From Rhizophagus irregularis (taxonomy: Eukaryota), in contig NC_089430.1 in NCBI RefSeq assembly GCF_026210795.1, positions 4,092,001 through 4,156,000 of the forward strand: 64,000 nucleotides of DNA, in the 5' to 3' direction. The number at the start of each line of letters is the position of its first letter. The stretch's first letter is position 1. Shown here piece after piece: positions 2,425-46,094 of the stretch. The notes beneath the pieces are model-generated. The model was given only the letters and a program-made list of their open reading frames with translations. It searched no databases and was not told the DNA's origin. The position numbers were made by a program, and so were the translations under genes.

Positions 2425-3763
2425 AGGCCCCAGAAAATGATTATATATGTAAAGTACCAAGATGCTTAATCAACATAGAAAAATTTTATGATGTAAGAAT
2501 TTTATAATGCTTAATTTTGAGAAAATTTTATACTATATAAGATAATTAAATTGCATATTTTTGGTATTATTTTAAAATACTAAAAGTTTTTACTAATTGT
2601 TTATTTTTCATATTTATAGAACTTTTTAAAATATTATATATTGAATTTATAATTAATTTTTATTTTATTTTTACTAACAGTGAGTGTTAATTTTATACTA
2701 TATTTTACAATTTTATATAAATGTATAAACAAAAATTTTTTTATGAAATTTCAGTTTTTTTTTTCAATGTTTTATTAATTATCTTTCAATAGTATTTTTT
2801 TAATTTTTATTAAACTCAGTATATTATTTTTAATATAAAATTACTATATTATATATATTTATTTGTTAAATAAAATTACTGTAAATATATTTTACTTTAA
2901 AATATAATTTCACTATTCACCACTTTGGTTATATCAAATTATCTTTTATGTTTAAGTAAGGTTGTTCAGCAAGTTAAATTTACTTGTATTTTAATTTTCA
3001 TAAGGCTAAGTATAATATTTATATAGAAAAGCATATTTTTTATAACAGTAATAACTTTTAAATTTTTCACTTTTTTATTTACAACTTTAAAGTGTAATTA
3101 CATCACTTTGGTCAAATGAAATCGACTTTCTAAATTAATTAAAAGTTTTTCAGCAAGGTCGAAACTACTTATACATTAATTTTCATAAATGTGAGTATAA
3201 TACTTATGGAGAAAAGTGCATTTTTCATAATAGTACTAACTTCTGAATTTTTCATTTCTCTGTTTACAAATTCAGAGTGTAATTACATCCTTTTAGTCAA
3301 ATGAAATTGACTTTCTAAATTAATTGAAAATTGTTCAGCAAGGTCGAAACTACCTACATATTAATTTTTATAGATGTAAGTATAATACTTATGGAGAAAT
3401 TTACATTTATTGTAATAGTATTAATTAAAATTTTTTTTTTACTATTTATTAACTTTATTAATTGAATATTGTTAATCTACTTGTATATTATGTTTAGTTT
3501 AGCTTCACAATGTATTGATCATATTTAAAATTAGATTTAATAAAATATATTTAATTAATAAATATATTTTATAAATTATATGTGTTATAATAAAAATTTA
3601 ATTAGGTTAGAAGATTAATAATTTGCTTATTTTTATATAATTTTTAAGGTTAGATTACTTAGATATTAACAATGCTTAGCAATTATAGTAAAAACCTATG
3701 CTTATAGCTACTAATAAAAAATATTTTTAGGACCTTACCTATATAAGTATTTTCTGGAATCCT
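2425..3763. mobile_element. Non-autonomous TIR element (AGG-C/A-CCC family), ~1.3 kb, copy without nested insertions
   Basis: Degenerate TIRs AGGCCCCAGAAAATGATTATATATGTAAAGTACC / GGACCTTACCTATATAAGTATTTTCTGGAATCCT; colinear with copy at 15237-23588 after removing its insertions; no clear TSD. Confidence 0.85.
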
Positions 3764-4689
3764 AAAAAAGCGAAATAAAAAGATCTTTCTCTTAGTAGAC
3801 AATGTACAGTTCATACTATTAGTAATTGGAGTTATTGATAAATATTACAATCCATTATTTGCCTCCCAATATTACAGTGCATCTGCAACCTGCTAATGCT
3901 GACATTATTAATTCATTCAAAGTTTGTATATTATTTATTATAAATTAGATTATAAAATTAATAGCACATATTCTAATAATTTATTAATCTTAGGTATAAT
4001 ATCGTAAAAGACTTATAAAAGATAGAATTAAGGCTTATGATAATGAATGGAGTTAAATATACTAGTTCCTAAATTGAAGATAAGTGACTCTATTTTACTT
4101 TGTACAAAAGCTTGAAAAGCTGTAACAAGTGAAACTATTTATAATTATTTGTCCAAAACTGGAATTTTGCCAATTTCGCCTTCACCCTCACCTTTACCTT
4201 CACTTTTACCTTCATCTTCTGATGAAGAACAAAATGATGATGGCCTAAATGAAATAGAAGAGATCCAAATTGTATCAATATAGTAATTTTATTTCTGGTG
4301 GATTAATAAGTGCTAAGAAATTTATCTTAATTGATAATGATAATAATTATGGGGGAGAAGAAATTACAGATGAAGAAATTGTAAATACAGTCAAACTTTG
4401 ATATAGCGAACTCTTGATATAGTGAATTTTTCAGACAACTATAATAAATTTCCTCTTGCTATAACAAATTAACCAATCAAATCTCTTAAAATTTTCACTA
4501 TAGCACTATCACAGGTCGAACAGATGTCATTGTCGCAAAATTTGCCTGGAATTTTTCTGGCAAATTGAGAATTATCCCGGTAAATTGAGGTAAATTGTGT
4601 TACAATTTTGGGATAATGGAGGTCTTACAATTTGGCAAATTTTGTCAAAATGGCGACAATCCTACACAATTCCTAATTCAAATGTTGAG

Positions 4690-5270
4690 AAATTTTTCAG
4701 AAATTTTAGTCAAATTTTTAGTAATTTTATGCAAACGTAATGAAAATTGTGGTGAATTTAGTTAAATTTTTAGTAATGTTATGTAAACGAAGTGCAAATT
4801 GTGGTGAATTTAATCAAATTTTTAGTAATGTTATGTAAATGAAGTGCAAATTGTGGTGAATTTAGTTAAATTTTTAGTAATGTTATGCAAACGTAATGCA
4901 AATTGTGGTAAATTATAGTGAATTTTTAGTAATTTTATGCAAAAGTAATGCAAATTGTGGTAAATTGTAGTGTATTTTTAGTAATGTTATATAAATTGTT
5001 GAAAATTTAGGTGAATTTTTCAGCAATGTTGTGCAAATGTAATACAAATTGTGGTAAATTTTGCATTTTTTCGGTAAATGTTAGCTAAACTTTTGATAAT
5101 TTAGTGAAATTTAGGATAATTTCGGACAATTGAGTGAAAATGTTTTACTGATTTTGGACAATTGAGTGTAAACGGTATAAATGCAACATTTTCAGAGACA
5201 ATTTAGTGAAATTTTGGACAATTGAGTGAAATTTAGTAATAATTTTAAACAATTTAGTGTAAACTCCACG
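4690..5270. repeat. Left subterminal tandem repeat (~53 bp unit)
   Basis: Recurring AAATTTTTAGTAATGTTATG…AAATTGTGGTGAATTT. Confidence 0.85.
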
Positions 5271-5434
5271 ACAATTTAAAACACTGTTTTAATAATTTCA
5301 CATAATTTATTATAATTTTATTTATTAATAAATGTACAATTATTATTATTTAACGATAATCTATGGATAATCTGCACCTCTAATTCATTCATGTATCAAA
5401 TGTTCAGTGCCAAAGTAGAAGCCGGTAAGTAAAC

Positions 5435-7420
5435 CAAAAAAAAGAAAAAAATGAAGCGTTAATAAACGTTTCGTTGAAAAAAAATCAAAATAAAGAAACA
5501 TTTCGAAGTATATACCTTCGAAATGTTAAATTCCATACGTCCAAGGACCGTTGAACCTAAAAAATAAAAAAAATGAAACGTTAATATACGTTTCGTTAAA
5601 AAAAATCAAATAAAAAAAATATTTCAAAGTATACCTTCGAAATATTGAATTCGGTTTGTCCAATGAGCCGCCAAACCTAAAAAATATAAAAAAAACGAAA
5701 CATTAATATACGTTTCGTTGAAAAAAATCAAAATAAAAAACAAACATTTCGAAGTATACCTTCGAAATATTCCTTTCGTTTTCACTGTTCCCTTTCGTTT
5801 CCCCCATTCGTTTTCACCTTTCCCGTTCATTTTCACCTTCCCCTTTCGTTTTTCCTTTTCCCTTTTCGTTTTTTCCTTTTATTTTCGTTTCCTCTTCCCC
5901 TTGTGTTTACTCTTTCCTTTTCGTTTTACCCTTTTCCCCTTTCGTTTCATCCATTCCTTTACGTTTTACCCTTTCCTTTTCATTTTATCCTTTCCCTTAA
6001 AGTAAAATAGAAAAAGAAACAAAAATTTAATAAATTAGATAAACAAAAAAAACGAAAAATTCCCCTAATTCCCTTTCCTTATTACCTTTCACCAAAGTCC
6101 GGGTCGTAATTTCATCCGGCATTCCTACAAGAAGGAAGAAAAGAAACGTCAGTTAACGTTTCTTAAAAAAAATAATTAATTATTAAGTTTCGCAACACAA
6201 TATTGCGAAACTCACCGGTTCGTTTCGAACTCCATCATCAAACGTCCGGCGTTCCTACAAAAAGTAAAAGAAACGTATGTTAGTATCGTTTCTTTAAAAA
6301 AAAAAATAATAATTAAAAAAATAAGATTCGCAATATTGCGAAACTCACCGGTTCGTTTCGATTTCCATTATCCAAACGTCCGGAACCTACAAAAAGAAAA
6401 AAAGAAACGTTAGTTAACATTTCTTACAATAAAAAAATAAAAAATTAAGTTTCGCAATGTAACATTACGCAAACTTACCGGTCGTTTCCATCATCCTAAC
6501 GTCCGGAACCTACAAAAAGTAAAATAAAGAAACGTTAGTTAACGTTTCTTATAATAAAAAAATAAAAAAAAAATTAAGTTTCGCAATGTAACATTGCGAA
6601 ACTTACCGGTCGTTTCCATCATCCTAACGTCTGGAACCTACAAAAAGTAAAATAAAGAAACGTTAGTTAACGTTTCATTTAATAAAAAAAAATAAAAATA
6701 AAGTTTCGCAACACAATGTTGCGAAACTCACCGGTTCGTTTCGAACTCATTATCCAAACGTCCGGCGTTCCTACAAAAGAAAAAAAGAAACGTTAGAAAC
6801 GTTTCCTAAAAAAAAATAAAAAAAAATTTAATTTTTTAAAAAAAGGGTTCGAAGAATTTCGCAACTTACCCTTTAGTTTCCTCATTTCCCAAACTCAAAC
6901 ACCGCAAATCCTACAAAAAAAAGGAAACATCAGTAATGTTTCCTAAAAAAAAAGAATTTAGAAAAAGTTTTGAGGCGAACGCCTCGAAACTTACCATTTC
7001 GTTTTTCCAAGTTGAATACGCCGGAAAGACCTATAAAAAAAAATAAAGGATTGTTAAAAATGTTCCTTATAAAAAAAAAAAAATTTTTTTTAGTTTTTTT
7101 TTTTAGTTTTCGAAACGAAAAGCTACCTTTCAGTTCTTCGTTTCCCGAAATCAAACACCGGAAGCCTACACAAAAAAAACAAAAAAAGGAAGCGTTGAGA
7201 AACGTTTCCTAAAAGGAATTAAAAAAATTAAAAAAAGTTTCGAAGCGAAACGCTTTGAAACTTACCCATTTCCTGGCTTTCTAAAGACGAATACCGAAAG
7301 ACCTAAAAAAAGAAAGTGTAGAAAGCGTTAGAAACGCTTCTAAAAAAAAAAAAAATTATTAAAAGTTTCGAAGCGAAACGCTTGAAACTTACTATTTCAT
7401 TGGAAGATTCTGACGCTGAT
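5435..7420 (-). ncRNA. Putative multi-exon non-coding transcript: 13-14 introns of 78-100 nt with micro-exons
   Basis: Introns at 7392-7303, 7265-7166, 7126-7031, 6994-6911, 6869-6771, 6731-6638, 6606-6510, 6478-6387, 6348-6255, 6215-6125, 6085-5996, 5759-5677, 5634-5557 (plus 5515-~5435 with mutated AG); GT donors (mostly GTRAGT or GTATAC), CTRAY-like branch sites, polypyrimidine tract and TAG (one AAG); no continuous spliced ORF found; expression not shown. Confidence 0.65.
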
Positions 7421-8099
7421 TACATAATTAATATGGTTATTGTTAATAATAGTAGGAAGGGAAAGGGGAAGGGGAGAGAAAGAGAGAAGGGGAAAGGGCG
7501 AAGGAGAATGGGAGGGAAGGTGAAGGTGAAGGTGAAAGAAAGAGGGAAGGGGAAGGTGAGAGAGAAAGGAAGGTAAAGGGCGAAAGAAAGGAGAAATAAA
7601 GGCATGAGAAAAAAAAATTAAGCTTTTTGCTAAAAAAAGCTTAATTTTTTTTCGTTATACCGCAGTTGAAGCTGCGGTAATTATTAAGTAATATCGCGTG
7701 ACGCACGTGATATATAATTTTATATAAATAGGGGCATTTTCCCCGAAAAATTTTTTTTTTATTATAATTTTTTTGATAGATGTATATATATACTTATATA
7801 TATACATATATATATATCTATCTAATAACTTTACGAAAAGCCCCTCCTCTGTAAACAGGTAGAGGCCATAAAGTACCTATAGGGGGAGAGCCGTTGCTGC
7901 TCCCTCCGCCTGTTTATAGTGACAAAAGAGGGAGTCTTCAGTAGTAAGGTTTCGTATAAATTAAACAACACATCGTGTTGATACATTGTTAAAATTAACA
8001 ATGTGAATTTAATGTTAAATAATGCGTTAGAATATAAATATTATAAATTTAATAATGTCCGTAATTTTACAAATAAATAAAAATTATCCTAACAATTTT

Positions 8100-9110
8100 A
8101 ATGTAATTAAGTGTAATGCTACATTATCCTGTGTAATTGTAGTATTTTTTTTGTGTTTTTTAGTGCAATTCCGCGTTTTTAGTGCAATTCTGCGTTTTTA
8201 GTGCAATTCTGCGTTTTTTAGTGCAATTCCACATTTTTTAGTGCAATTCCGCATTTTTTAGTGCAATTCCGCGTTTTTTAATGCAATTCCGCATTTTCTA
8301 GCATAATGTTACATAACACGAAATTTTCTAAAAATATGATAATTGTGGTACTTTTTAGTGTAATGCTACATTGTCTAGTGTAATTGTGGTATTTTTTAGT
8401 GCAATGCTGCATAATTTAGTATAGTGCTACATTTTTTAGTATAATTTAATGTAATGTGGAATTTTCCAAAAAATGTGATAATTGTGATGCTTTTTAGTGT
8501 AATTTGGTGAAATGCTACATTTTCCAGTGTAATGCCATATTATTGAGCATTTTCAAAAAAAAAATGTAACATTTTAACATTCTGACGAAAGTGAAACATT
8601 TGACCAAAAAAACATAAAATTTGCTAAAAATATGCAACATTTGACAAAAAATATAGAATTTTCATAAAAAAATGCACCATTTGCTAGGAAATCGGAATAT
8701 TTGACAAAATTTGATTTTAATTGACAATGTTATAACAATTTTATGAAATGTTGTTACAATGATATCACATTGGAGATAAAATGTGGCATTTTCATAAAAA
8801 TGCACCATTTGCAAGAAAATTGGAACATTTGACAAAAAAAAAGCAAAATTTGATTTTAATTAACAATGTTATAACAATTTTATTAAATGTTATTACATTT
8901 GAGGTAAAATGTGAAATTTTCATAAAAATGCACCATTTGCAAGAAAATTGGAACATTTGGCAAAAAAAAAGCAAAATTTGATTTTAATGACAATGTTATA
9001 ACAATGTTACGAAATGTTACAAAAATGTTACATTTGAGATATAATGTAGCATTTTCCCAAAATTTCATAAGATTTGCTAAATCGGACAATGTTGTAACAA
9101 TGCTATTCCA
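8100..9110. repeat. Right subterminal tandem repeats
   Basis: ~20 bp units TTTTAGTGCAATTCCGCG (8155-8300) and ~130 bp units containing AAAATGCACCATTTGC. Confidence 0.8.
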
Positions 9111-9722
9111 AAAAATTGCTCAGCGTAATGCAGCATTTTCCACAATTTCCCACAATTTTCCAGGAAAATGGGGAATTTGCATTTTTTGAATTTTGGACAA
9201 TGGCGCCCCTTCGACCTGTGCTAGGGTTCGTTATAACAAGAATTGACTGTATAGTAAAACCAAATGAAACAGATCTTAAAGAAAAAGAATTAATTCTACA
9301 ACCCAAAATATCCACTTCAGAAACATTAACATCTATTATTAAACAAAATATTATCTTTTCTTGATAATCCATCTGATACTTTTTTTATGAAGTTCAATAA
9401 CAGAAATATATTATATAATAATCTTAAAAATAAATTATTTGTTTCAATAAAAATAGTAAAGTTCAATTGGTATTAAAAACATATGATGGATCGTATGTAA
9501 CTTAATATTATAATAATTGATAATATAATTTTTTTTTTTGAACATTTATTAGTAATATAATATAAACATTTATATTTTATTAGTAATATAATTTTTTGAA
9601 CATTTTTATATCAATGTATTTTTTTTTTATATAATAAAGTTCAAAAATCTTTATATCATAAATATTATATAAAAAATCATATGATTTTTGATATATTAAA
9701 CTTTTTATTGTTTACTTATAGA

Positions 9723-10224
9723 TAAAGCTTCTAATAGTTCAGGCTAAACTAAAGAACCAATCTGAAACTGGCTAAAAAAATCTTTCAGATCCAAAATTCA
9801 GTTCAGTTCGGTTCAGGTATTAGAACTGAAAAACTGGCAGTTTGATTCAGTTTAATCCCATTTTTTACAAAAATGTGAAAAATCAAATAGCTGTCTATCT
9901 AGTGATCATATAAAGTTGAACCATATATCATTGGATTCCTCTTAACGAGATGCGTCAAATGGTGGTAAGATCACATCTTTAGCATTGATAGATCACAAGT
10001 TAATCTATGCTAAATGATTTATAAATAATTGAAAATATCAAGCTATCTATTGGCGCTAGAGATAGGATCTTAGCACCATTTGATGCATCTCAGTGAGGCG
10101 AATCCAATGAATATTAATTCGTTCATATACGATTACTAGATGGCAAATAATATCAAGTTTCACATTTTTTTAAAATTTTTGAGCGTTGAAAATTAAAAAT
10201 TCTGATATATGAATTTATTTCATC
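9723..10224. mobile_element. Truncated copy (one arm) of hAT-type foldback element
   Basis: Starts TAAAGCTTCTAATAGTTCAGG, matching the TIR of 23973-25084; colinear with ~24030-24435. Confidence 0.75.
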
Positions 10225-10732
10225 AGGAAATTTTGGGGGTGTTATTTTACTAATAAATATGTCGGTTAACACTAAACAGTTGTTCAATATATTGTTCAAT
10301 GCTGTATACTGTAATGATCGACATAAAGTGTTGTTATATGCAATATAATTAATATAATTACACACATTTTTTATGTTATTTAATACGAGCGTAATTCAAT
10401 ATAATATATTGTGTAATTTAATGCTATCGTTCAATACAAACAACACTAAATGTTGTTTTACTAAAATTTAATATAAAAATACACTAGTTTTTATACCCAT
10501 TTTCTAACAGTTTACGCATTTTTCATTACAAATTTAGGTTTAATGCTATCATTTAACACAAACAATACCAAATGTTGTTTTACCAAAATTTAGTATAGAA
10601 ATACACTACCATTTTTTAACACTATTTATTATCACTAGATATAGTTTAATATATTACAGTATTGCTATACTAAATTAACATATATAAATACAGTATGTTA
10701 TTATATATACAGCTAGTATTTTATATAGATAC

Positions 10733-13700
10733 CTAAAATAAAAATACGTTGACAAAGTATTCATTTTGGCATTTTGTACGTTGAATTTTGATTCCACAGG
10801 TATAAAATTATATTCATTTATAAGTTTTAATAATGGACAATCGTACTTATACAAATGACGTTGATCATTATAACAAAAATCATACTATCTAACTAGCACA
10901 AGATCAAATGATGAATAATTTTTAATTACAATATTAACCAACATAAGTACCTAAAAAGAAATAAATAGTTAATTTATTTGGCTTAGATATTATATAATAT
11001 ATTCAATAATAAAACAAATAATACTTTTCCAAAACATGTTCCTTCATTGGTATTATAATCTTCAGCTTCTTCAACATTCATATTAATTGAAACATTACTA
11101 AATTCTGGTTCATTATAGTACTTGCTAACTGCTCGAACACAATCTCCACTAGCAGTCATATTTGTATAACTATACCAAGAAATAATTGTATTATTAATAA
11201 TCATCTCCTCGGTTAAATTATCATCTAAATCAAAAAACTCATTTAAAACTATGAGAAATTGGCTTAACGCTAACAAAGCATCAGAAGCAAGACTATTTTT
11301 TTCCTTATAACTATCAAAAAATTCGTCAAAATTTTCTAATGCAAATTTTCCCAATAACCCCTTTAACGATGTGAATTTTTGAGATTTTTTTTGTTTAGTT
11401 TGATGTATCAAGTATTTTAACGTTGTTTTGTGTTGAACCTATAAAATAATTAATTTTTAAATGACATCAAGAATGAATTTAAAAAATACTATACTAACTG
11501 TATTAATAATTTGTCCCATTAGTTCTCGTTTGTTACTTGATCTGTATGGATTTTTGACGTAATCTTTGTGCAAAAACTCGTATGTTTCTGTTGTATAACC
11601 ATTAATTGCACCAAACTCTTCAATTGAATTAATGATGTGATACACCCAATTGTGTAGTTTGGGCAATTTAAGTTCAGATCGGGAATAGTGTTGGAATAGT
11701 TTCACAAATGCTGTTATCCAATCTGTTATTAATTTCTATAATAAATAAAAATCAAATAGTTGAAACAAATGTTTAATTAAAATGATACTTTTTTTAAAAA
11801 ATTACTTTAAATTCTACCAGTTCCGAATTCGTAAAATATTCTTTTCGGCTAAATAAATACATTTTATTCTACCGATAATAAACATTAACCAATGCATTAT
11901 CTTGTTTTTTAGCGTTCTGTTCTTTGCTGTACTTTATTATTAACCCTTCAATTACGAAAAGAAATACTTTTATCATATTATAGTATTCATTTACCGTAAG
12001 GCGCTTAATATTTTCTAATCCATGTTTGAAAATTTTAAGCCCTAGAAATCTAGGAATAGTGGCTAAGCATTTGTCAAGTTCATCAACTGCCACTTGTCCA
12101 CATAGATTTTTCAACATTTCTTGTGTATAAATTACTTGATATTTATACAATCCTAGATCGAGATGATGCATCCTATCTGGGTATGTTGCTAAATATATAT
12201 CAAGTTGACTAAAGAATAATATATAAATAATATAAGGTGGCTAATTCAGTTTTTATTATTATTTAATTAATATATTGTATTAATTTTATCTGTTATAATA
12301 AAATTGACTTACGGATATTTCCAAAAAATATTATTCATGTCATATATCGAATATTGATAAGCGAGGCGTTGATTTACAATATTTTTCATGGTTGTTGGCG
12401 TTCTTAATTCTATTTCATCATTGCTTAATCTTAAATTATTCAAATCTTCTCTAGAAATTAAACATTTATGGTAAGGATATTTACTGTTAATCGAGTATGT
12501 TAACGTTTGTGTAGCATTTTCTGGAAGATCTTCCAACAAGGTAGATATATACGGAAAACACCATATGTCTCCATTATTTGTTTGTAAATCAATGCCCCTA
12601 TCTTTGTATGACAATAGCGGATGCATCATGACATCAAATGCTTTATGAAACAAAGTCTTTTTTGTTAGCAAAAATCTCCTTGATTTTTTTTCCGAAATTG
12701 TTTTTGCTTTTAATATTAGAAGATAACAAAGAAGAACTTTAGCGTCAGGTTTATTATGATGCCAGTTTGGTATATTACCTAAAGTCAAATACACTGGATG
12801 CTCAGATAATTTTCCTATTTGGTCACAAGTTGTAGCATCAGAATAAAGAATTATTGATAAAATATTTGCCGCGTTAAGAAGCGTATTTTGTGTCTTTTCT
12901 CACCATTTTCCATTGAATTGTTCACTATAAATTCTTTGGCCTCAATTGTATAATGGTGTAAATTTAAAGATACAATGTTCAAAAATATCATTATTACTCA
13001 GCAATTCTTTTATAGCATCAAAAATCTGTCGATAGTGAAGGTAGTATGTTTCATTATTATATTTCATTATAGGCACCTTTTTGAAAGAGGTATGTGATTT
13101 TGCTAATTGATCCAAAAACTTTCGGCCTTGTTTCACTGAAGTAGGTAAAACTACATCATCACGAGCAATACTTTTTGAAAATTTAAGTATTTCATTACTA
13201 CAAACATCTGATAGATCCCATTTAACAAGTAAGCTCATAAAATTTCCAAACTCCTTGGACAGAAAGTCTATTTTGTCACTCGTAGTAATATCAATATTTT
13301 GGCAACTGGCAGATATTCCACATCAATTAACTCAAATTCTACGTCCTCCTGTAGTAAACGGACAAAAAGCTTGTTAAAAGCTTATTTTATTGATTTTAAA
13401 TTGTGTTAACTTAATACCTGAATTTTTTCATCTTCATTATCTTCCATTTCTCTTTCATCAACATCATCGTCTTCTAGTACTTCATCTTCTTATACGTCAT
13501 CATCTACATCTTCTTTTATGTTCGTCACTTCCATGTTTATTTCTTTTCCTACATCTACTTCTACATACAGTCAACTCTTGTTATAATGAACCCTAGGTTC
13601 TAGACTTCAACTTCGCTATAAGGCTATAGTGAAGATTTTAAGAGATTTGATTGGTTAATTCGTTATAGCAAGAGGAAATTTGTTATAGTTGTCTAAAAAA

Positions 13701-14038
13701 TTCACTATATCAAGGGTTCGCCATATCAAGGTTTGACTGTACTCTCTTTCTATATATGTTTTCACATTTGTTTCTCTGTCTATATCTATTTCATTATTGT
13801 ACGCCATTTCTTCCTGTTACTCTTGTTGATTAAAACTTTCTTCTGCGTCTTTTAAACGGTACGTTTCACCATCATATTGCTCTTCATCATTATTTTCGTT
13901 TAAGATAATTGTATTATTTCTTTTATTTGCAATTTCTTGCAGATAGCTGTCTATTGTACTGCCGTGAATTTTTATATGATTTCTAAATGCCGTATGACAA
14001 GAAAAGTTTCTTGAACAATAAGAACACTTGAATATCAT
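10733..14038 (-). pseudogene. Plavaka-family transposase with N-terminal C2H2 zinc finger, multi-exon, decayed
   Basis: FKCSYCSRNFSCHTAFRNHIKIH; ILYSDATTCD…HPVYLTLGNIP; DRMHHLDLGL; KLHNWVYH…GYTTETYEFLHKDYVKNPYRSSNK; premature stops, frameshifts, MITE insertion. Confidence 0.85.
13568..13739. mobile_element. Tigger-like MITE, 172 bp, inserted in the Plavaka gene
   Basis: TA|CAGTCAACTCTTGTTATAATGAACCC … GGGTTCGCCATATCAAGGTTTGACTG|TA. Confidence 0.9.
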
Positions 14039-15605: not shown

Positions 15606-17320
15606 TAGAGTTTCGAACCAGATTTATTTTTTAAATCTGAATTAGATACGAATAAATCCGGTTTCCTTTGGTTCAATCTGGATATAATAAATCCAGTTTC
15701 CTTCAGTTAATCTGGATATAATAAATCCGGTTTCCTTCAGTTAATCCGAATATAATAAATCTGGTTTAATTTCAGCCAGTATTATTTATTAAATTTTAAA
15801 TAAAACAAATAATTTACGCAGGGGCATTGCAAAGCACTCCTATTACGTCATTTACATGGTAAGTTTTGATTAGTTATTTGTTTAATAATATTTCTTTTGC
15901 AACGTTTCTAACAAACTGAAACTTTTTTTTCTCACCATTAGACACGAATCCAGGCTGCTAAGTGGGGAAGGGAGGATTGGACACAAGCCCTTTAGACGCG
16001 AACCATGGGAAGGAGTTAGAGAAGGGAAATTTCTTACAGTCGTTTTTGTCAATAAATTTCATTTTTGACATAATTCAGTTTTTATATAATGTAACAGTTC
16101 TGTTCATATTGATTTTTACAATCGTAATGTTAGTAAATTTTACAATTTTTTTTTGTTAATAACATGCATTTTTCTTTATTTAATTAATAAACCTAAAACA
16201 AATACATAATAGCAACGTTCTAAGACATATATTTACTAACTAAATCATAGTTAAAACTGAATCCAACTAAGCTACTGATAATTGACTTGATTATTAATTC
16301 TATAATTAAAGAAAAACTTATTTCCCCTCTTTGTTTATGCTATAAAACCTTCCAAAAAAAGCTATAAAGAAGAAATAACTAAAACTATATTAAAAAAATT
16401 ATTACAAGAAATAAATAAAATCAAAAAAAAAAATTAATAAAAATGAGAAGGGAGTAAAAAAAGATGGTAGTGAATGAAAGAAAGTAAAAATAAGCAAAGA
16501 AAATGCAAAGAACAAAAAAAAAGTAAAAAGGAGATAAAAAAAGTAATAGGTAATAAAAAAAAAGTAAAAATGGAGCATAAAAATGAAAAAAGTATAATAA
16601 TAGGAAGACAAAAAGAGTGAATAAAATAATTAAAAACAAATAATAATTGACTGACACCACCCATTAAAATAAAGAGAAAAAGAAAAAAAACTGGTTAATA
16701 TCTTTTAAATAAAGGAAAGCAATAGAAAACAAGAAAGACAGAGTAGCAGACATACCTTAAATAAAAATCTTACCTTAAATTGTTTTAAAAAATGTCAAGT
16801 TACAAAAAGCAAAAAATAAAAAAAGAAGCCTTACCATTTTTACCCAATCAATAAATGGAATAAATATCAAAAAATATCAAATTTGCAGGATAAGTAATTC
16901 GGGCAGAAGTTTCATACGCAGCCATACGCTGATACGTAATTGATCATCATAATTCTGGCCAAATTATAAATTTGACCAGAATTATAATTTCCATTTTAGG
17001 AAATTGATGTTACACAAATTCGAAAAAGGAAATTTTCATTTTTTAGAAAAATCAAAATTTGTAGAATGGCTATCGCCAAAAAAGGATATGATAGGCATAG
17101 CCGTAGTTATAATTCTGGCCAAAATTATAATTTGGCCGGAATTACTGCCGATCAATAATAAAACTGAATAAAACCGAATATAATAAATCTGAATGAAACG
17201 AATAAAACCAGATATAATAAATCTGGATGAAACCGAAGCAACCAAATCTCTCCGGGTTTAAATCTGAACCGGGTGAATCTGGATTTAAATCCGAATGTCG
17301 AAGGTCAGATCCAAACTCTA
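15606..17320. mobile_element. Non-autonomous hAT-type element
   Basis: TAGAGTTT…AAACTCTA termini; perfect 8-bp TSD GTCAATAG (15598-15605, 17321-17328); subterminal GATATAATAAATC repeats. Confidence 0.9.
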
Positions 17321-19397: not shown

Positions 19398-22300
19398 AAT
19401 CCGACAGTGGAAAAGCAAGAACAAAACATAGAACTGGGTAGGGACCGTTCAATAGTTCAAGCTACGAATAATGAAATAAGATATCTCGGTGTTTGGTTTT
19501 CTAACAAACCAAGCAGATGACGATGGATGCAACGTCTGTTCACGATAGTCAATGAATTTTGTAATACAGTCCGAAGGAAATTTGTTCTAGCGGGCCAATG
19601 TATATATTTAATTAATAGAGTGTTGATATCCAGATTAATATATATAGCTCAAATCATGATATTGACAGAACATGATTGGAACTAAGTATTCGCCCCGATA
19701 ATGAAGTTAGTAAAAACTGGTTGAAACTACCTAAAAACACACCATCATCGTTATTATTTTATGAAGGGGGATTCGGTATGGACCATCCATGGAAACACTA
19801 TTGCATTAACAATATAATAGATCTAACGATTAGATTAAATAGTGATTCACACGCGGCAACATCAACACAAATCAGACTTAAAGACACGCAGCTTAAATCA
19901 CTCATTACTGATCCGATTTTTGACTGTGATCTTAATGTAATGCACTAGATAAAACCACAAACTCAGAAAAACATTTCATTTAACGCTTTGGTAATAACAA
20001 AAACTCTTGATATGTCAATGGCAGTAGATCCGATTGACAAATCAAATTGGAGCATTACAGGAGGGAAAGAGCCAATACTGAAATTTTTTAAACAGTTTTA
20101 GCTTACGAAATACATATATAGAATCAATCAAAGCGTACATTACCCAATATTTTACATTGATCAATTATTTATTAGGAGAACATATCTTATGACATGGAAA
20201 TAATACCATAGATTAGCATTACTTCTGGTACAAGGAAGAACAGCTAGATGGTACCGTGATGTGGCTCATTTATGCACATCCAGAATAGATAATCTAATAG
20301 TATCAAACGAACTGGAGATTACCAAAGTTAACCATTGGCCCTTTTTACAAGATATCATACCAGATGCACGCCGAAAACAAGCTATTTTTATACAGGAATC
20401 ATCAGCGGAATCAAATGTATGGACAATAGGTAAAGTTAATAAAATACGCCGCCATAAAAAAGGGATTTTAGTGAACTATCACCCAGGATACAATGATAAT
20501 GGAATCATTAAATGGCAGAACATGGGAAGATCTATTACGGCTGAATGTTGCAAGGTGGTGATATTAGATAAAGTCCCTAATAAACAGGGATGGAATTTCC
20601 CTTATGAATAGATAAATTCGAACCAATTAGACGCATCAATACCCAACAATAACCTACCATCATCAGCACTAGATCCCATAATCATCCTATCATCGGTTCA
20701 AGACATATGGATTCATAGGTGGATAGAAGATGACAAACTGAAATCGCGATTAATGGATATTAGAAATATACTGGCAGAGAGATCATTGGTAGATTACTAC
20801 ACAGATGGATCACTCACACCAAGCACTCCCACAACAATGGGTAAATAAAATCCCAACTTAGTGTATACAAATATGGGTGCGACATTTTGTGTCAATAATG
20901 AACCACACCTATCAGCCCAAGCAAATTTATCGCTATGGCCTTCATCCACAAGATCGGAATTGGTGGCAATTTTTATGGCACTACTCACAGCCCCAATGAA
21001 TGCAATAATCAATATCTACACAGATAGTCAAAATGCCATTTGCATGATCAATAATCATCATAATAAATCGGGCAGGAAATTATTGAAGCAGACAAATTCC
21101 TTAATCCTACTTAAAATTAACATTCTTTTACAAGAAAAAAAGATGGAACTGATATTAGAGAAAGTTAAGAGATATAGTGGAGATGCTATGAATGAAATGG
21201 CAGATGAATTAGCCAAGAGCACAGGCAATAGCAACCATTATTTCAACAACAGATTTAATTATAGTAATAGAACAGTTAGATTTTTCCCAATTTTCAAATA
21301 GATACCAATTGAATATAATTTAAGGAAGTTTATTAAGACCCTAATGAATCCGAGAGTGGAGCAGAATGGTCGATACTTAAAACAAATGAATATGAAACAC
21401 CAATTGACTGGAACATAACTTGGAATTTAATTCATAGATACAAAGGATTCAACTGTATTTCAGTTAAAAAGCATTGGCATCTAATATTTATTACTAAATT
21501 ATTTGCTAAACTTCTTCCTATAGGTACTATTCTACTCCAAAGAAAGCCAGATATATACAAGGATTTTGTTTGAGCAAGATGTAATGCTAACAAAGAAGAA
21601 AGCAGATATCATTTTATTGAATGTGATGCTAATAAGAAACTATGGCCTATAATTAAAAACAAAATGCAAAATGATTTAGTTCCTATAATTCAAAAATTAA
21701 ATGATTCGCCAGAGAACACATCCAAGATTATAAGTGAAAAATTAAATCAAATACTAGGATCACAACATGATAACAATAAGTTTACTGACTTCTACTTACT
21801 GGCTTTAGAAGCTAAGATTAACACTAATTTTTCCAAAATTTCAAAACAGACATTTGGATTATCAGAATCAAAAACATTTTACTTCTGGCCTCCCTCTTAG
21901 ACTCATTTATTATTCATTTTAAAGAATTAATTTGGCTACCAAAATGTAATGCTACTGTGGCATGGGAAAAGGCAAGAAATATTGGAAGAAAAGATAAACT
22001 AAATAGATCTGAAAATATGGATCGCTATTACAAATCCTCACATCAAAATTCTAAACATCTAAGACAGGATAAACAATACCTAAAAGAGAACAATTTAATA
22101 GATTCACAGGAAGATCAGATTGTAGTACTGGATGATATTCCAATTGAACAGAAGTCAGTGCAGTCAGAAACTTCATTAAATGAAAATCCCATTTTATCAA
22201 AGTTCCATAGGGTGGGGAAAAAAAGCACATGATCAAATGTGCTTGTTAATTAGTAACAATTGGTGGTACAGTTGGGCTTATAAGAAAACAAAAAAAATTA

Positions 22301-25960: not shown

Positions 25961-28131
25961 AAAAGAAAAAATGGTTATTAGTAATAGGAACCCTGACATT
26001 ATATATACAATTCAGAGAGTAACTTTTTAGCAAATTGGCCTAAATTTCAAAAAAAAATCACGTTTTTTGCGATTATTTTGGCATCTAGTAGTCCAATTTA
26101 TGCAAACTTTTTTTGTTTTGTAGCCTTATTGAATGTTTGAATCCTTTAGTAACTATTTGTAATAATAAAATAAATAAATAAACTAAGATTTGTACTTATG
26201 AATTTTAGTTCCTTAGCTTATTATCCTTCAATTAATGCAAGCATTTATAAATAGGGATGGTAAAGTTCTAGGTCCTAGACCTAAAAACCTAGTCCTAGGA
26301 TCTGGTCTGCAGATTTTTAAGTTCAAATTTTGGACTAGAAGCAGACCAGGTTCTAAAAAGTCCTAACTAATAAAGTATTATTATATATTAGATAAACATT
26401 AAATGTGTAGGTTATAAGAGATTTATATAAAATAATATTATGTTTAAATTATATATGTATAGTTTGCTGTAAATTGTAAATTTGATTTTAAGTAATAATA
26501 AATTATAAAAAATGCACTGCAATATTGCAATACAATTTTTATATTATTAAAATCATATTAAAAAATGAGTTGCAATATTGCGATTCACATTTTTATATTA
26601 AAATCATATAAAAAAGTGAATCGCGATACTGCAACTCACTTTTTTTATATAAAATCAATATAAAAAGTGAATCGCAATATCACAAATCACTTTTTTTATA
26701 TTTAGTTATCACTAAATTCATAAAATCTATAAATAACTTAGTCAGGATCAGGTCTTGGGACCAGAACACTTATTATGATTGCTCAATATAAAAAAAATTA
26801 ACATCCAAAATGATGAGAATGACCAGCCAAAAAAAAATATTTACCAATTCTATTGACGATTTTTCAGTTATACTTACATGTAATGTACAAGTTTTAATTA
26901 TAAATGATTAGAAAATACAATTAGAGGGTGAATAAAGAAGGTACCAGCTTTGAATTTTAAAATTAAACTGGTAAAAGTTTCTAGAAAGAGTATATTTTAT
27001 TTTTATTATATAAAAACACTTGTTAATATTTTTATTTGTTTTTTTTTTATAGGTATGGGGTTTATATTGAAATTAATCCAAGTAATAAAAATAAATTTTT
27101 TTGAATAATTTTTTTTTAAAAATAGTGCTTTAAAAAGTAGTGTGAGACAACTTAAAATAAAGAATAAATATATAATACATTATACTGTTAATAATAAAAC
27201 AAAGAATATTAACAAATCATATGAAAAGAATTTTATTGAACAAATGCTTATTTTTAATTTCAGCTAGAGTTACGAACTAGAAAACTAATTCTGGCTACTA
27301 TAATAAATATTATTTAACTGGTGAGATTTTTGCAAATCCTCTTCCCTTTTAGTAATTACATGATATGTATCACTTCCCTAAAGTTATTATAAAATAAAAA
27401 AAAAAAGTTCATTAAAACTGGACTACTGAATGCTAAGAAAATTGTATAACTTTAATTTTTATACTTTTTAAAAAATGGGCCAATTTGCTAAAAATATAAC
27501 TTATAATTTATTTTAGAGATTTCTAGAATTTTTACTTTATAACAAATGTTATAATAAGATGCAATATATATTGTATTAAGTTTATCTTATTTATTAATCA
27601 TTATTACATTTAATTTTAGACTAGTATTTTATTATATTATATGTATGAAAAAGTAATGTAATACTATAAGAGATAGTTACATCTGCAACTTTATTGGTTT
27701 GTCATATATATAATAGTTATAGTAGTTTAATGTTAGTGATTTTTGTTTATAAAAGTAACAAACAGAAGTCTTTATATAACTACTTAATATCATTCTCAAT
27801 TAGTTAACATTTTATAAAATCCTATCATTTAATAAAACCTGACTGTCTTGAAAAATTAACAAATCTTGTATCTCTACCTATAAGACATCAAATATAGGAT
27901 ATGTAATCTTACAATTATTTTCAGGTTTTATTATTAATTATGTAAATTACATGCATGATAAAAGATTTTAACTACCAATTCTTTTTACATTGTTAAAAAA
28001 ACTATTTATCACGTAACAAGTATTGAAAAAGTTGATAATTCGAAGATAATATAATTAAAAATATCAATTTAAAATTAAGAATCCTGAATATAGTAATAGG
28101 GGTTTCTAATTCAAGTAGAATTTAACCTTAG

Positions 28132-44463: not shown

Positions 44464-46094
44464 AATGAATTTCTGATGAGAGAGAAAAGAAACCTTTTTT
44501 TTTTCGTTAAAAAAAGAAAACCGTTACAAAAAATATAAATAAATAAATTGTAAAAAAAATAGGTATAATCTATTTATATGAAAAAAAAAAAAAAAATTTT
44601 TTCACTAGAACTTAAAAGGCTTTAGTTCGTAAAAAAATTTTAAAACGATAATAGATAAGTTTCGTTTGTTTTTTTTTAATTTTTTTTTTTAAAAAAAAAA
44701 AAACTTGAAAAACACGCTTCCTATATTTATACTTTATTAAAAAAAAGCAAGTTTTCCGTATGGAGTAATTGGATAATCTAACACAAACTGATAAACTTGA
44801 ATTAAACTTAAATTGGATAGAAATTTACAGGAGAAGTATAAACTATAAATACATTGCGCGCTATATTTTGGGTTATATAATAGTCCGTTGACTTCTAACT
44901 ACGTCATTTAATGTAGTACCTTGTTTAAAATAATAATAGAAGGTAAAATAGGAACAGCCAATATTTATTTCTTTGTCCCTTATCAGCTCAGAGAATAAAG
45001 TAAATAAAATAAATTTCATAGTTCATAGATGTTTTCCCGTTCTCCATCGATTTGTATGTTGTTTAAAAATGTCATAAGATCATCAATGGGGTTTTAAGCT
45101 AAAAATATATCAATAAATGTGCGTTGGGATGATTACCAGTAATATTTCCTGTTGATTTTCTCAATAAATAATTTAAGTTATCAATATATAAATTTTGGGG
45201 CGTAAAATAAAACCTTAATTTTTTACGCCTTTTATGATGAAAAGGAAAAAAAAAAATTATAATAACTTGTTATAAATATACTGTATGTACATTTGACAGG
45301 AAATTTTTTATTGACACCCGTCAGCTTCGCTAAGGAAAGTAGCTAACTATATAATTAAAAAATGCAAGCACAAATAAAAATAAATGAACAATATTTTCAA
45401 ACAATACCCATTGCAGATATAAACCAAATAGATTAATCTACCGTGAGAAGATCACATTCATCCTTTCAAATAATCGCTTAGTCTTTCCCCAGATATTTTT
45501 AACTTTAAAAAAAATTACTTTTACTTCTTTCCTTTTGCTTTATATCCTTAACGTAGATCACTTTTTATTTCGGAAAATTACTAGTTTAGTTTCAAGAATG
45601 AACAAAAAATATATGAAACTGATCACAAAACATCCCTTACATGTTGACTGACATTGCATACAATATGATTGGATGTCATCTTTACCTTTTTTTATTTTTG
45701 TTAAAAAAAAAAATTAACATATAAAGAGTAATATTTCTATTATAGTGTTTATTTTTTTGACTCGTCGAAAATCCGAAGATCTTTTACAAAAAAAATTTCC
45801 ATATCATTCAAAATTTGATTGGAAATCCAAAAAAGTATAAATAGTATCGGAATAATGTTTTAAAAAATTTACTACTTTTTTTTTTTCAAAGAAAAAAACA
45901 AAAAATCTGGACCTGTATCTTACATTTTTGTTTGTGTTTATGACTCAGTATATGATGAAATTTGGAGTATTTAATTAAAGATTGTTTGTACAACATTCAA
46001 TTTGTAAGAAGCATGTTTACAACCGGAATTCAGTCCGATACATAAATAACTAAAAAGGTAATAAATGAATAACAATAAATATTTTTCTACTTTT

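Follow-up and report, generated by a model that had tools for sequence, protein, structure and literature searches.

Tandem introns in a Plavaka transposon of Rhizophagus irregularis, with hairpins predicted over their donor and branch sites

Why should a DNA transposon carry a tandem series of introns whose donor and branch sites both lie in self-complementary sequence, and does that complementarity serve the RNA or the DNA? We address this question for a locus of the fungus Rhizophagus irregularis (assembly GCF_026210795.1, contig NC_089430.1), analysed within a window of 64,000 nucleotides (positions 4,092,001 to 4,156,000 of the forward strand; all coordinates below are those of the window). 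The window is AT-rich, with a GC content of about 27%. On the minus strand, 14 intron-like units (I0 to I13) occupy 5435-7392, arranged head-to-tail and read from 7392 down to 5435. They lie inside a Plavaka (CACTA-type) DNA transposon of about 9.4 kb (4386-13741), a setting that an earlier model-made description of the locus, here called the sequence-only reading, had missed. Our preferred account, which we hold tentatively, is that these are transposon-borne spliceosomal introns in which predicted RNA hairpins cover the donor and the branch adenosine, likely slow splicing, and so explain the intron retention seen in RNA reads.

The units are 78-100 nt long. All 14 begin with GT (in the form GTAAGT, GTGAGT or GTATAC) and 13 end in AG, the exception being I13, which ends in TG in the studied copy; reads from paralogous copies have AG at the homologous acceptor (loose end at 5445, with 25 reads in run X23 and 29 in X24). 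Every unit carries a T-rich tract. A YTRAY branch motif was found in 13 of the 14, at 20-27 nt from the 3' end in 12 of these 13 and at 40 nt in I10; I1 carries CTCAAC, which the motif search does not accept. Between the units stand GC-richer exons of 31-42 nt and a single purine-rich exon of 236 nt with a 19-nt periodicity (E11, 5760-5995). The short exons cluster at 39 and 42 nt, and lengths of 31, 37, 38 and 41 nt also occur. Tandem Repeats Finder gave periods of 128 (6124-6835) and 122 (5431-5771), with units as low as 55-70% identical to one another. Five ordinary introns inferred in conserved genes of the window served as controls (67-84 nt; donors GTAAGT, GTATAC and GTATTA), and because these use the same donor types, the units fit the genome's own intron format.

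Are the units spliced? The RNA evidence consists of two poly(A) runs from one study, X23 and X24, compared with the DNA run X8 and with X17 and X18. Junctions were decoded by hand from short strings: the exon starts of paralogous copies differ from those of the studied copy, so that alignment breaks fall inside the exon, and no listed joint has canonical CT..AC ends, the junctions emerging instead from the letters between the joint halves. In the minus sense, the joint 5544->5514 with its 11 letters places the start of a paralog exon immediately after the end of an E13-like exon (16 reads in X23, 5 in X24, none in X8 or X17), while the joint 5544->5633, likewise with 11 letters, links the end of E12 to a paralog E13 start with I12 removed (5 reads in X23, 3 in X24, none in X8). 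RNA-only exon-exon junction reads over both joints thus number 21 in X23 and 8 in X24. Furthermore, in one X23 read and in a contig of X17, the end of an E8-like exon runs straight into E10, which begins at 6124. We take the paralogous copies to be array units because their flanking exons all start alike. Since paralog RNA reads hold exact exon-exon junctions, the units are true introns, which a minority of reads show spliced out; in this the sequence-only reading, which had treated them as spliced introns, was right. The RNA joint with most support, 5477-5730 (27 reads in X23, 20 in X24), corresponds to an array variant without two units and represents a DNA paralog and not splicing, because X8 has near-identical joints.

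These data bear directly on the objection that the array is a satellite-like tandem repeat, and not a series of introns, with GT...AG ends that arose by chance. The 122-128-bp periodicity, the position inside a transposon that holds other repeat arrays, and the unspliced state of most RNA reads are all consistent with such a repeat. Against it stand the confinement of exon-exon junction reads to RNA runs and the persistence of GT (14/14), AG (13/14), the T-rich tract and a branch motif spaced as in fungi, also in units that share only 55-70% identity. The satellite reading is already disfavoured, and we regard it as very improbable.

Unspliced reads outnumber spliced ones, and in RNA the intron bins are as deep as the exon bins. 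The paralog exon of joint 5544->5514 is still attached to its intron in 7 reads of X23 and, in X24, in 4 reads and a further 19 loose-end reads. Across the acceptor (bin 5550-5574), X23 has a contiguous depth of about 32 and X24 one of about 56. The RNA reads are not DNA carry-over, because they are nearly absent (depth 0-2) at 5000-5300 and 7828-8000, where X18 is deep (466-976).

What distinguishes these introns from their neighbours is the pair of hairpins that most of them carry. The donor, junction-spanning and branch hairpins quoted in the sequence-only reading were all located on the minus strand; the donor hairpins so located belong to I2, I3, I5, I6 and I11-I13, and the branch hairpins to I0, I3, I5 and I6. 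Taken in the order of transcription, with z-scores of folding energy relative to dinucleotide shuffles and palindrome scores given for donor and branch in turn, the units are as follows. I0 (7303-7392, 90 nt) has a donor hairpin at 7390-7363 and a branch hairpin at 7342-7319 (z = -4.32), and I1 (7166-7265, 100 nt) has them at 7263-7235 and 7210-7187 (scores 21 and 15, one A·C mismatch each, z = -3.11). I2 (7031-7126, 96 nt) has a weak donor hairpin at 7125-7104 and an unconvincing branch hairpin (z = -0.82); I3 (6911-6994, 84 nt) has strong ones at 6992-6965 and 6944-6922 (scores 21 and 18, z = -5.81). I4 (6771-6869, 99 nt) combines a weak donor hairpin at 6865-6847 with a branch hairpin at 6807-6785 (z = -1.41). 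The lowest of the z-scores listed here belong to I5 (6638-6731, 94 nt; 6729-6701 and 6679-6654; scores 24 and 19; z = -7.27) and I6 (6510-6606, 97 nt; 6605-6575, with 14 bp, and 6550-6527; scores 28 and 22; z = -7.16). In I7 (6387-6478, 92 nt) the donor hairpin at 6477-6446 has one bulge and the branch hairpin lies at 6425-6402 (z = -3.32), and in I8 (6255-6348, 94 nt) the donor hairpin is at 6348-6321 and the branch hairpin, with a long loop, at 6295-6267 (z = -4.48). I9 (6125-6215, 91 nt) has its hairpins at 6214-6184 and 6164-6141 (z = -5.72), and I10 (5996-6085, 90 nt; GTAATA...AAG) is without either (z = -0.85). The last three, I11 (5677-5759, 83 nt; z = -2.96), I12 (5557-5634, 78 nt) and I13 (5435-5515, 81 nt), have donor hairpins at 5771-5743, 5646-5618 and 5527-5497 and branch hairpins at 5719-5694, 5597-5572 and 5475-5450.

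The donor stem begins at +2 or +3 in I0-I9, and in I11-I13 it crosses the exon-intron junction and leaves the donor GT inside the loop. The ends of E5, E8 and E9 (6732-6745, 6349-6362 and 6216-6229) also contain CGAAAC, a sequence complementary to GTTTCG in the 5' arm of the intron. An alternative stem of 6 bp formed by the two would place the donor in a loop, the arrangement predicted for I11-I13, and a switch between masked and presented states is conceivable.

A strand-symmetric, ungapped palindrome finder scored the donor palindrome at 15 or more in nine of the 14 units, to which RNA folding adds the bulged hairpins of I0 and I7, making 11; the donor palindrome is weak in I2 and I4 and missing from I10. 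A branch palindrome with at least six Watson-Crick pairs is present in 12 units and absent from I2 and I10. This enrichment exceeds chance. Palindromes scoring at least 18 occur at 6.1 per kb in the array (12 cases) versus 0.55 per kb in the remaining 62 kb (34 cases), and 10 of 14 units reach a fold z-score of -2.9 or below, compared with none of the five control introns, whose scores range from -1.93 to +0.99.

Pairing also persists where the sequence has changed, as the sequence-only reading had claimed. Across the 13 pairs (159 cells) of the donor helix, 87.4% of cells are paired, compared with 22-50% when the 3' partner is slid by one to three columns; two-sided changes occur at six of the 13 pairs, and the observed covariation score was reached by none of 500 shuffles. 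For the branch helix (10 pairs, 140 cells) the corresponding values are 84.3% and 29-56%, with two-sided changes at five of the 10 pairs and the score reached in 2 of 500 shuffles; here MAFFT shifted the 3' arm of I8 by four columns, and I8 is counted as broken. The inner donor stems fall into about three classes. A further case is a paralog seen in 14 RNA reads of X23 and 15 of X24 (loose end at 6444, decoded by hand), in which the branch palindrome lacks one base in each arm and has one CpG changed in each arm, with pairing kept. The independent covariation events are nonetheless few, because the 14 units all arose by tandem duplication from a single ancestor.

How might such hairpins act on splicing? 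We folded each intron with 30-nt flanks and scored 13 units, I1 being left out as it lacks the motif. The predicted unpaired probability of donor positions +3 to +6 is at most 0.13 in seven of the 13, and that of the branch adenosine at most 0.06 in nine, as against 0.34-0.93 in the five control introns. In our preferred account, the two CpG-cored palindromes of each intron would fold in the RNA, with one hairpin covering positions +3 to +6 of the donor and the other the branch adenosine. Signals so covered would be less accessible to U1 and U2, splicing would be slowed, and the slowed splicing would in turn give the heavy intron retention found in the RNA reads. Stem formation in vivo and the role of the stems in retention enter this account as what the folding and the reads suggest, and the pairing would have been kept by selection and not by a process at the level of DNA.

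Several observations weigh against this account. The junction reads come from paralogs and were hand-decoded, so that splicing is seen in the family and not in this exact copy, and, because the libraries behave as unstranded, antisense transcripts or nuclear precursors could account for the unspliced reads. The donor GT of I11-I13 stands in a loop and is predicted to be accessible, hence presented rather than masked. The fixed position of the hairpins at the splice signals is not independent evidence, because the units share a single ancestor. Several palindromes (the donors of I3 and I8, the branch palindromes of I5-I7) continue to a centre of 0-2 nt that an RNA hairpin could not use. The stems show no preference for a strand: mismatches of the G·T and A·C types number 12 and 14 in the alignments and 5 and 6 with the symmetric palindrome finder, and summed folding energy is -247.9 kcal/mol on the minus strand and -235.0 on the plus strand, the minus strand being the better in seven units, the plus strand in six, with one tie. 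Finally, 49 of the 50 intronic CpGs lie in the hairpins (629 nt) and one in the other 640 nt of the 14 introns, while the density of AACGTT is 5.6 per kb within the array and 0.11 outside (50-fold) and TTCGAA at 5.6 and 0.23 per kb (24-fold). This concentration of CpG and of particular hexamers looks like the architecture of a DNA site.

The strand comparison matters in particular because the sequence-only reading had described the deviations from pairing as G-U on the minus strand and had proposed a bias towards such pairs as the means of telling RNA structure from DNA palindromes. G·T mismatches are indeed present, but A·C mismatches are equally common and no bias was seen. Its proposal that the hairpins mask the U1 and U2 sites and slow splicing therefore survives in part: the predicted cover of +3 to +6 and of the branch adenosine and the dominance of unspliced reads agree with it, and the missing G-U bias does not. 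The test itself is weak, because many of the mismatches are private decay of the studied copy; at least one is demonstrably so, that at 5452, where the pairing base is found in 1974 of 2722 depth units in X8.

Several of these observations speak for a strong rival, the maintenance of palindromes at the level of DNA, to which we assign a minor but substantial share of the probability. Under this explanation the palindromes are features of the transposon's DNA, either half-sites for a DNA-binding protein of the element or host, or cruciform or hairpin sites, built on AACGTT, TTCGAA and CCGG, or else products of intrastrand template switching or arm-to-arm conversion, which would both generate the palindromes and preserve their perfection, and any effect on splicing is incidental. 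CACTA elements such as En/Spm possess arrays of inverted TnpA-binding motifs. Besides the even strand balance and the complementarity reaching 0-2-nt centres, the composition of the array speaks for such sites. Observed/expected CpG is 2.38 in the array and 0.99 in the whole window, CCGG reaches 6.6 per kb in the array against 0.68 outside and recurs in the exon pieces, and each hairpin arm holds a self-complementary CpG hexamer, a feature overlooked in the sequence-only reading; AACGTT, TTCGAA and CCGG may be methylation or binding sites. Read depth in X8 points in the same direction. Per bin it ranges from 26.5 to 5628, with 3081-5628 in branch-palindrome bins and 94 in the exon bin 5650-5674, and the palindromes, on which the peaks fall, thus surpass at least some exons in conservation across copies and form the best-conserved part of the family. 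Hairpins with seemingly compensatory changes, moreover, are reported to arise and persist through template switching (10.1101/2021.04.15.439925, PMC8794818). Three features sit poorly with this rival: the inner stem differs wholly between unit classes and yet stays complementary, which is unexpected for a sequence-specific dimeric site; the array lies 0.9-3 kb from the terminal repeat, outside the usual subterminal zone; and most units have a palindrome at each of the two splice signals. Within a repeat family, covariation alone cannot tell selection on RNA from palindrome maintenance at the level of DNA.

If the pieces between the introns were coding, a different explanation would follow, in which the array is a present or past protein-coding micro-exon gene of the transposon, with one repeat of 13-14 residues per exon, and the hairpins are by-products of tandem exon-intron duplication. 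The removal of introns in RNA and the clustering of exon lengths at 39 and 42 nt agree with this, and frame 0 has no stop in the 42-nt E12 or in three paralog exon starts, although an open stretch of 14 codons is weak evidence. When the exons of the studied copy are joined, stops interrupt each of the three frames and no long open frame results, which leaves a non-coding unit or a coding repeat that has decayed; exons of 31, 37, 38 and 41 nt break the frame, no single frame is open across the four 39-nt exons (checked by hand), and exon pieces are less conserved among copies than the intron palindromes. We consider a micro-exon gene improbable. An SP7-like effector gene was also considered and was rejected. 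Such effectors of arbuscular mycorrhizal fungi are described as having repeat units that end in Y[KR]Rx[AP]x[AP] and one conserved intron before the first repeat (PMC11333574); in the spliced product this motif is found in no frame, and every repeat of the array has its own intron.

Two further explanations involve small RNAs. The array could be a spliceosome-stalling cassette, in which many weakly recognised introns hold spliceosomes and so feed small-RNA production against the element, or tune the element's own expression. A route from stalled spliceosomes to small interfering RNA (siRNA) has been described for transposons of Cryptococcus (PMC6643885), and AGO-like genes are reported to be expanded to 40 copies in Rhizophagus irregularis (PMC11075540). 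The heavy retention, the position within a transposon and the predicted masking of splice signals agree with a cassette of this type, while nothing in the present analysis ties retention to RNA interference (RNAi), and we judge it distinctly improbable. The second explanation, that the hairpins are mirtron-like Dicer substrates, had been raised in the sequence-only reading and is rejected on the length of the stems. Like mirtrons, the introns are short and contain hairpins, but each has two separate stems of 6-14 bp with loops of 2-9 nt, too short for a duplex of about 21 nt; the intron ends are unpaired, and there is no single hairpin of about 20 bp or longer spanning the intron. The probability of this reading is close to nil. 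A comparison with Rfam gave eight weak matches, none at the gathering score, the best of them outside the array. Two of the matches, both to bacterial small RNAs (E of about 0.8), fall on the plus strand and overlap the array; the other six, including all those to microRNAs, lie outside it, at 7591-7822.

What, then, is the element that carries these introns? Its ends are terminal inverted repeats at 4386-4509 (124 nt) and 13618-13741, which are 93% complementary, and the flanks beside them do not match by eye, so no target-site duplication was seen there. Upstream of the array and in the same minus-strand orientation, open reading frames (ORFs) at 10983-13322 are pieces of a Plavaka-type transposase, with a match to the Plavaka domain PF18759 at 12309-12899 (E = 1.7e-21; 77.3 bits against a cut-off of 26.3). 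Plavaka elements, which belong to the CACTA/CMC/EnSpm superfamily, are reported to be prevalent and expressed in Rhizophagus irregularis (PMC11075540). The distance from array to terminal repeat is 0.9-3 kb. The same element holds further tandem arrays at 4705-5245 (periods 52/156 nt) and 8155-8445 (20 nt), and over the zone 5000-5300 the depth is 707-976 in X18 and 0-2 in RNA. Adjoining the array upstream is a CT-rich block (7440-7620, minus strand), possibly a promoter-proximal tract, with weak complementarity to E11 (35 nt, 77%); this block and the GA-rich E11 flank I0-I10 and are loosely complementary to each other. Just upstream of the block is a strong A/T-rich palindrome (7601-7661; score 38, arms of about 19 nt), with an RNA depth of 7-9.

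The array belongs to a multi-copy family. Most matching reads fit it only partly, at 90-99%, and DNA joints also reveal copies that lack one or two units. A pattern search of the window found no unit copies outside the array; a donor-like match at 15858 proved to be an ordinary intron without palindromes, and one at 44654 was unrelated. In a metagenome scan with an unspecific 16-letter donor pattern, 119 loci matched, of which six with GC below 0.36 were without array motifs and the other 113 were judged by GC alone. Pattern scans of genome-contig and viral-contig collections gave no matches.

Elsewhere in the window we noted its longest palindrome at 26560-26644 (39-nt arms, score 58), with smaller neighbours at 26504-26543 and 26658-26699; two copies of a MITE-like foldback repeat of about 38 nt at 16946-17144 (92% complementary, 119 nt apart); and, on the plus strand, a probable retroelement fragment at 20204-22232, whose ORFs match the RNase H domain PF00075 (E = 4e-13).

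How structured multi-copy introns of fungi originate and multiply has been a standing question, and a transposon-borne tandem stock is a concrete candidate source. It is a speculation that we would rate as rather improbable that a Plavaka transposon carries and amplifies a cassette of self-folding introns, their donor and branch clamped by CpG-cored hairpins, which would make its own transcript a spliceosome-stalling substrate, for self-limitation or as a trigger of RNAi, and could provide a reservoir of introner-like introns for fungal genes. The 14 natural variants, which range from strong hairpins to none, are well suited to testing the effect of local RNA structure on splicing efficiency.

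Both structured multi-copy introns and hairpins that hide splice sites are already known, and none of the closest cases combines the three features seen here. A literature search for tandem micro-exon/intron units with a separate hairpin at each splice signal and carriage by a DNA transposon did not find the combination described, which leaves its absence unproven. The introner-like elements (ILEs) of Dothideomycetes are, like the array, multi-copy spliceosomal introns with unusually stable predicted structure, reported to be kept by compensatory mutations (PMC3609843). The greater stability that sets introners apart from ordinary introns is found in the array too (z at or below -2.9 in 10/14 units against 0/5 controls). 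ILEs occur singly in unrelated host genes, whereas the introns described here stand in tandem with homologous micro-exons inside a DNA transposon, and in another fungal lineage. The symmetrical sister (stw)introns of Hypoxylaceae likewise are proliferated fungal introns with strong internal symmetry and the potential to form double-stranded RNA (PMC8469720). Their terminal inverted repeats of 45-55 nt pair the intron ends, and the authors exclude DNA transposition in that report (PMC8469720), in contrast to the two local hairpins of 6-14 bp and the transposon carrier of the array.

Artificial hairpins that hide the 5' splice site or the branch point of a yeast intron inhibit splicing. The natural zipper stems described in yeast, by contrast, pair a donor-proximal with a branch-proximal segment and help splicing (PMC12350175). 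In the array the donor and the branch site each lie in a separate hairpin, a pattern repeated over 11-12 tandem introns, and the hairpins are predicted to occlude the signals; minimum-energy and centroid folds contained no donor-to-branch zipper stem, and two local hairpins appeared in its place.

With the subterminal motif arrays of En/Spm, the locus shares short motifs in inverted pairs inside an element of the CACTA superfamily. It differs from them in that its palindromes belong to introns that are transcribed and can be spliced, at a distance of 0.9-3 kb from the terminal repeat, and in that the inner sequence varies while its complementarity is kept.

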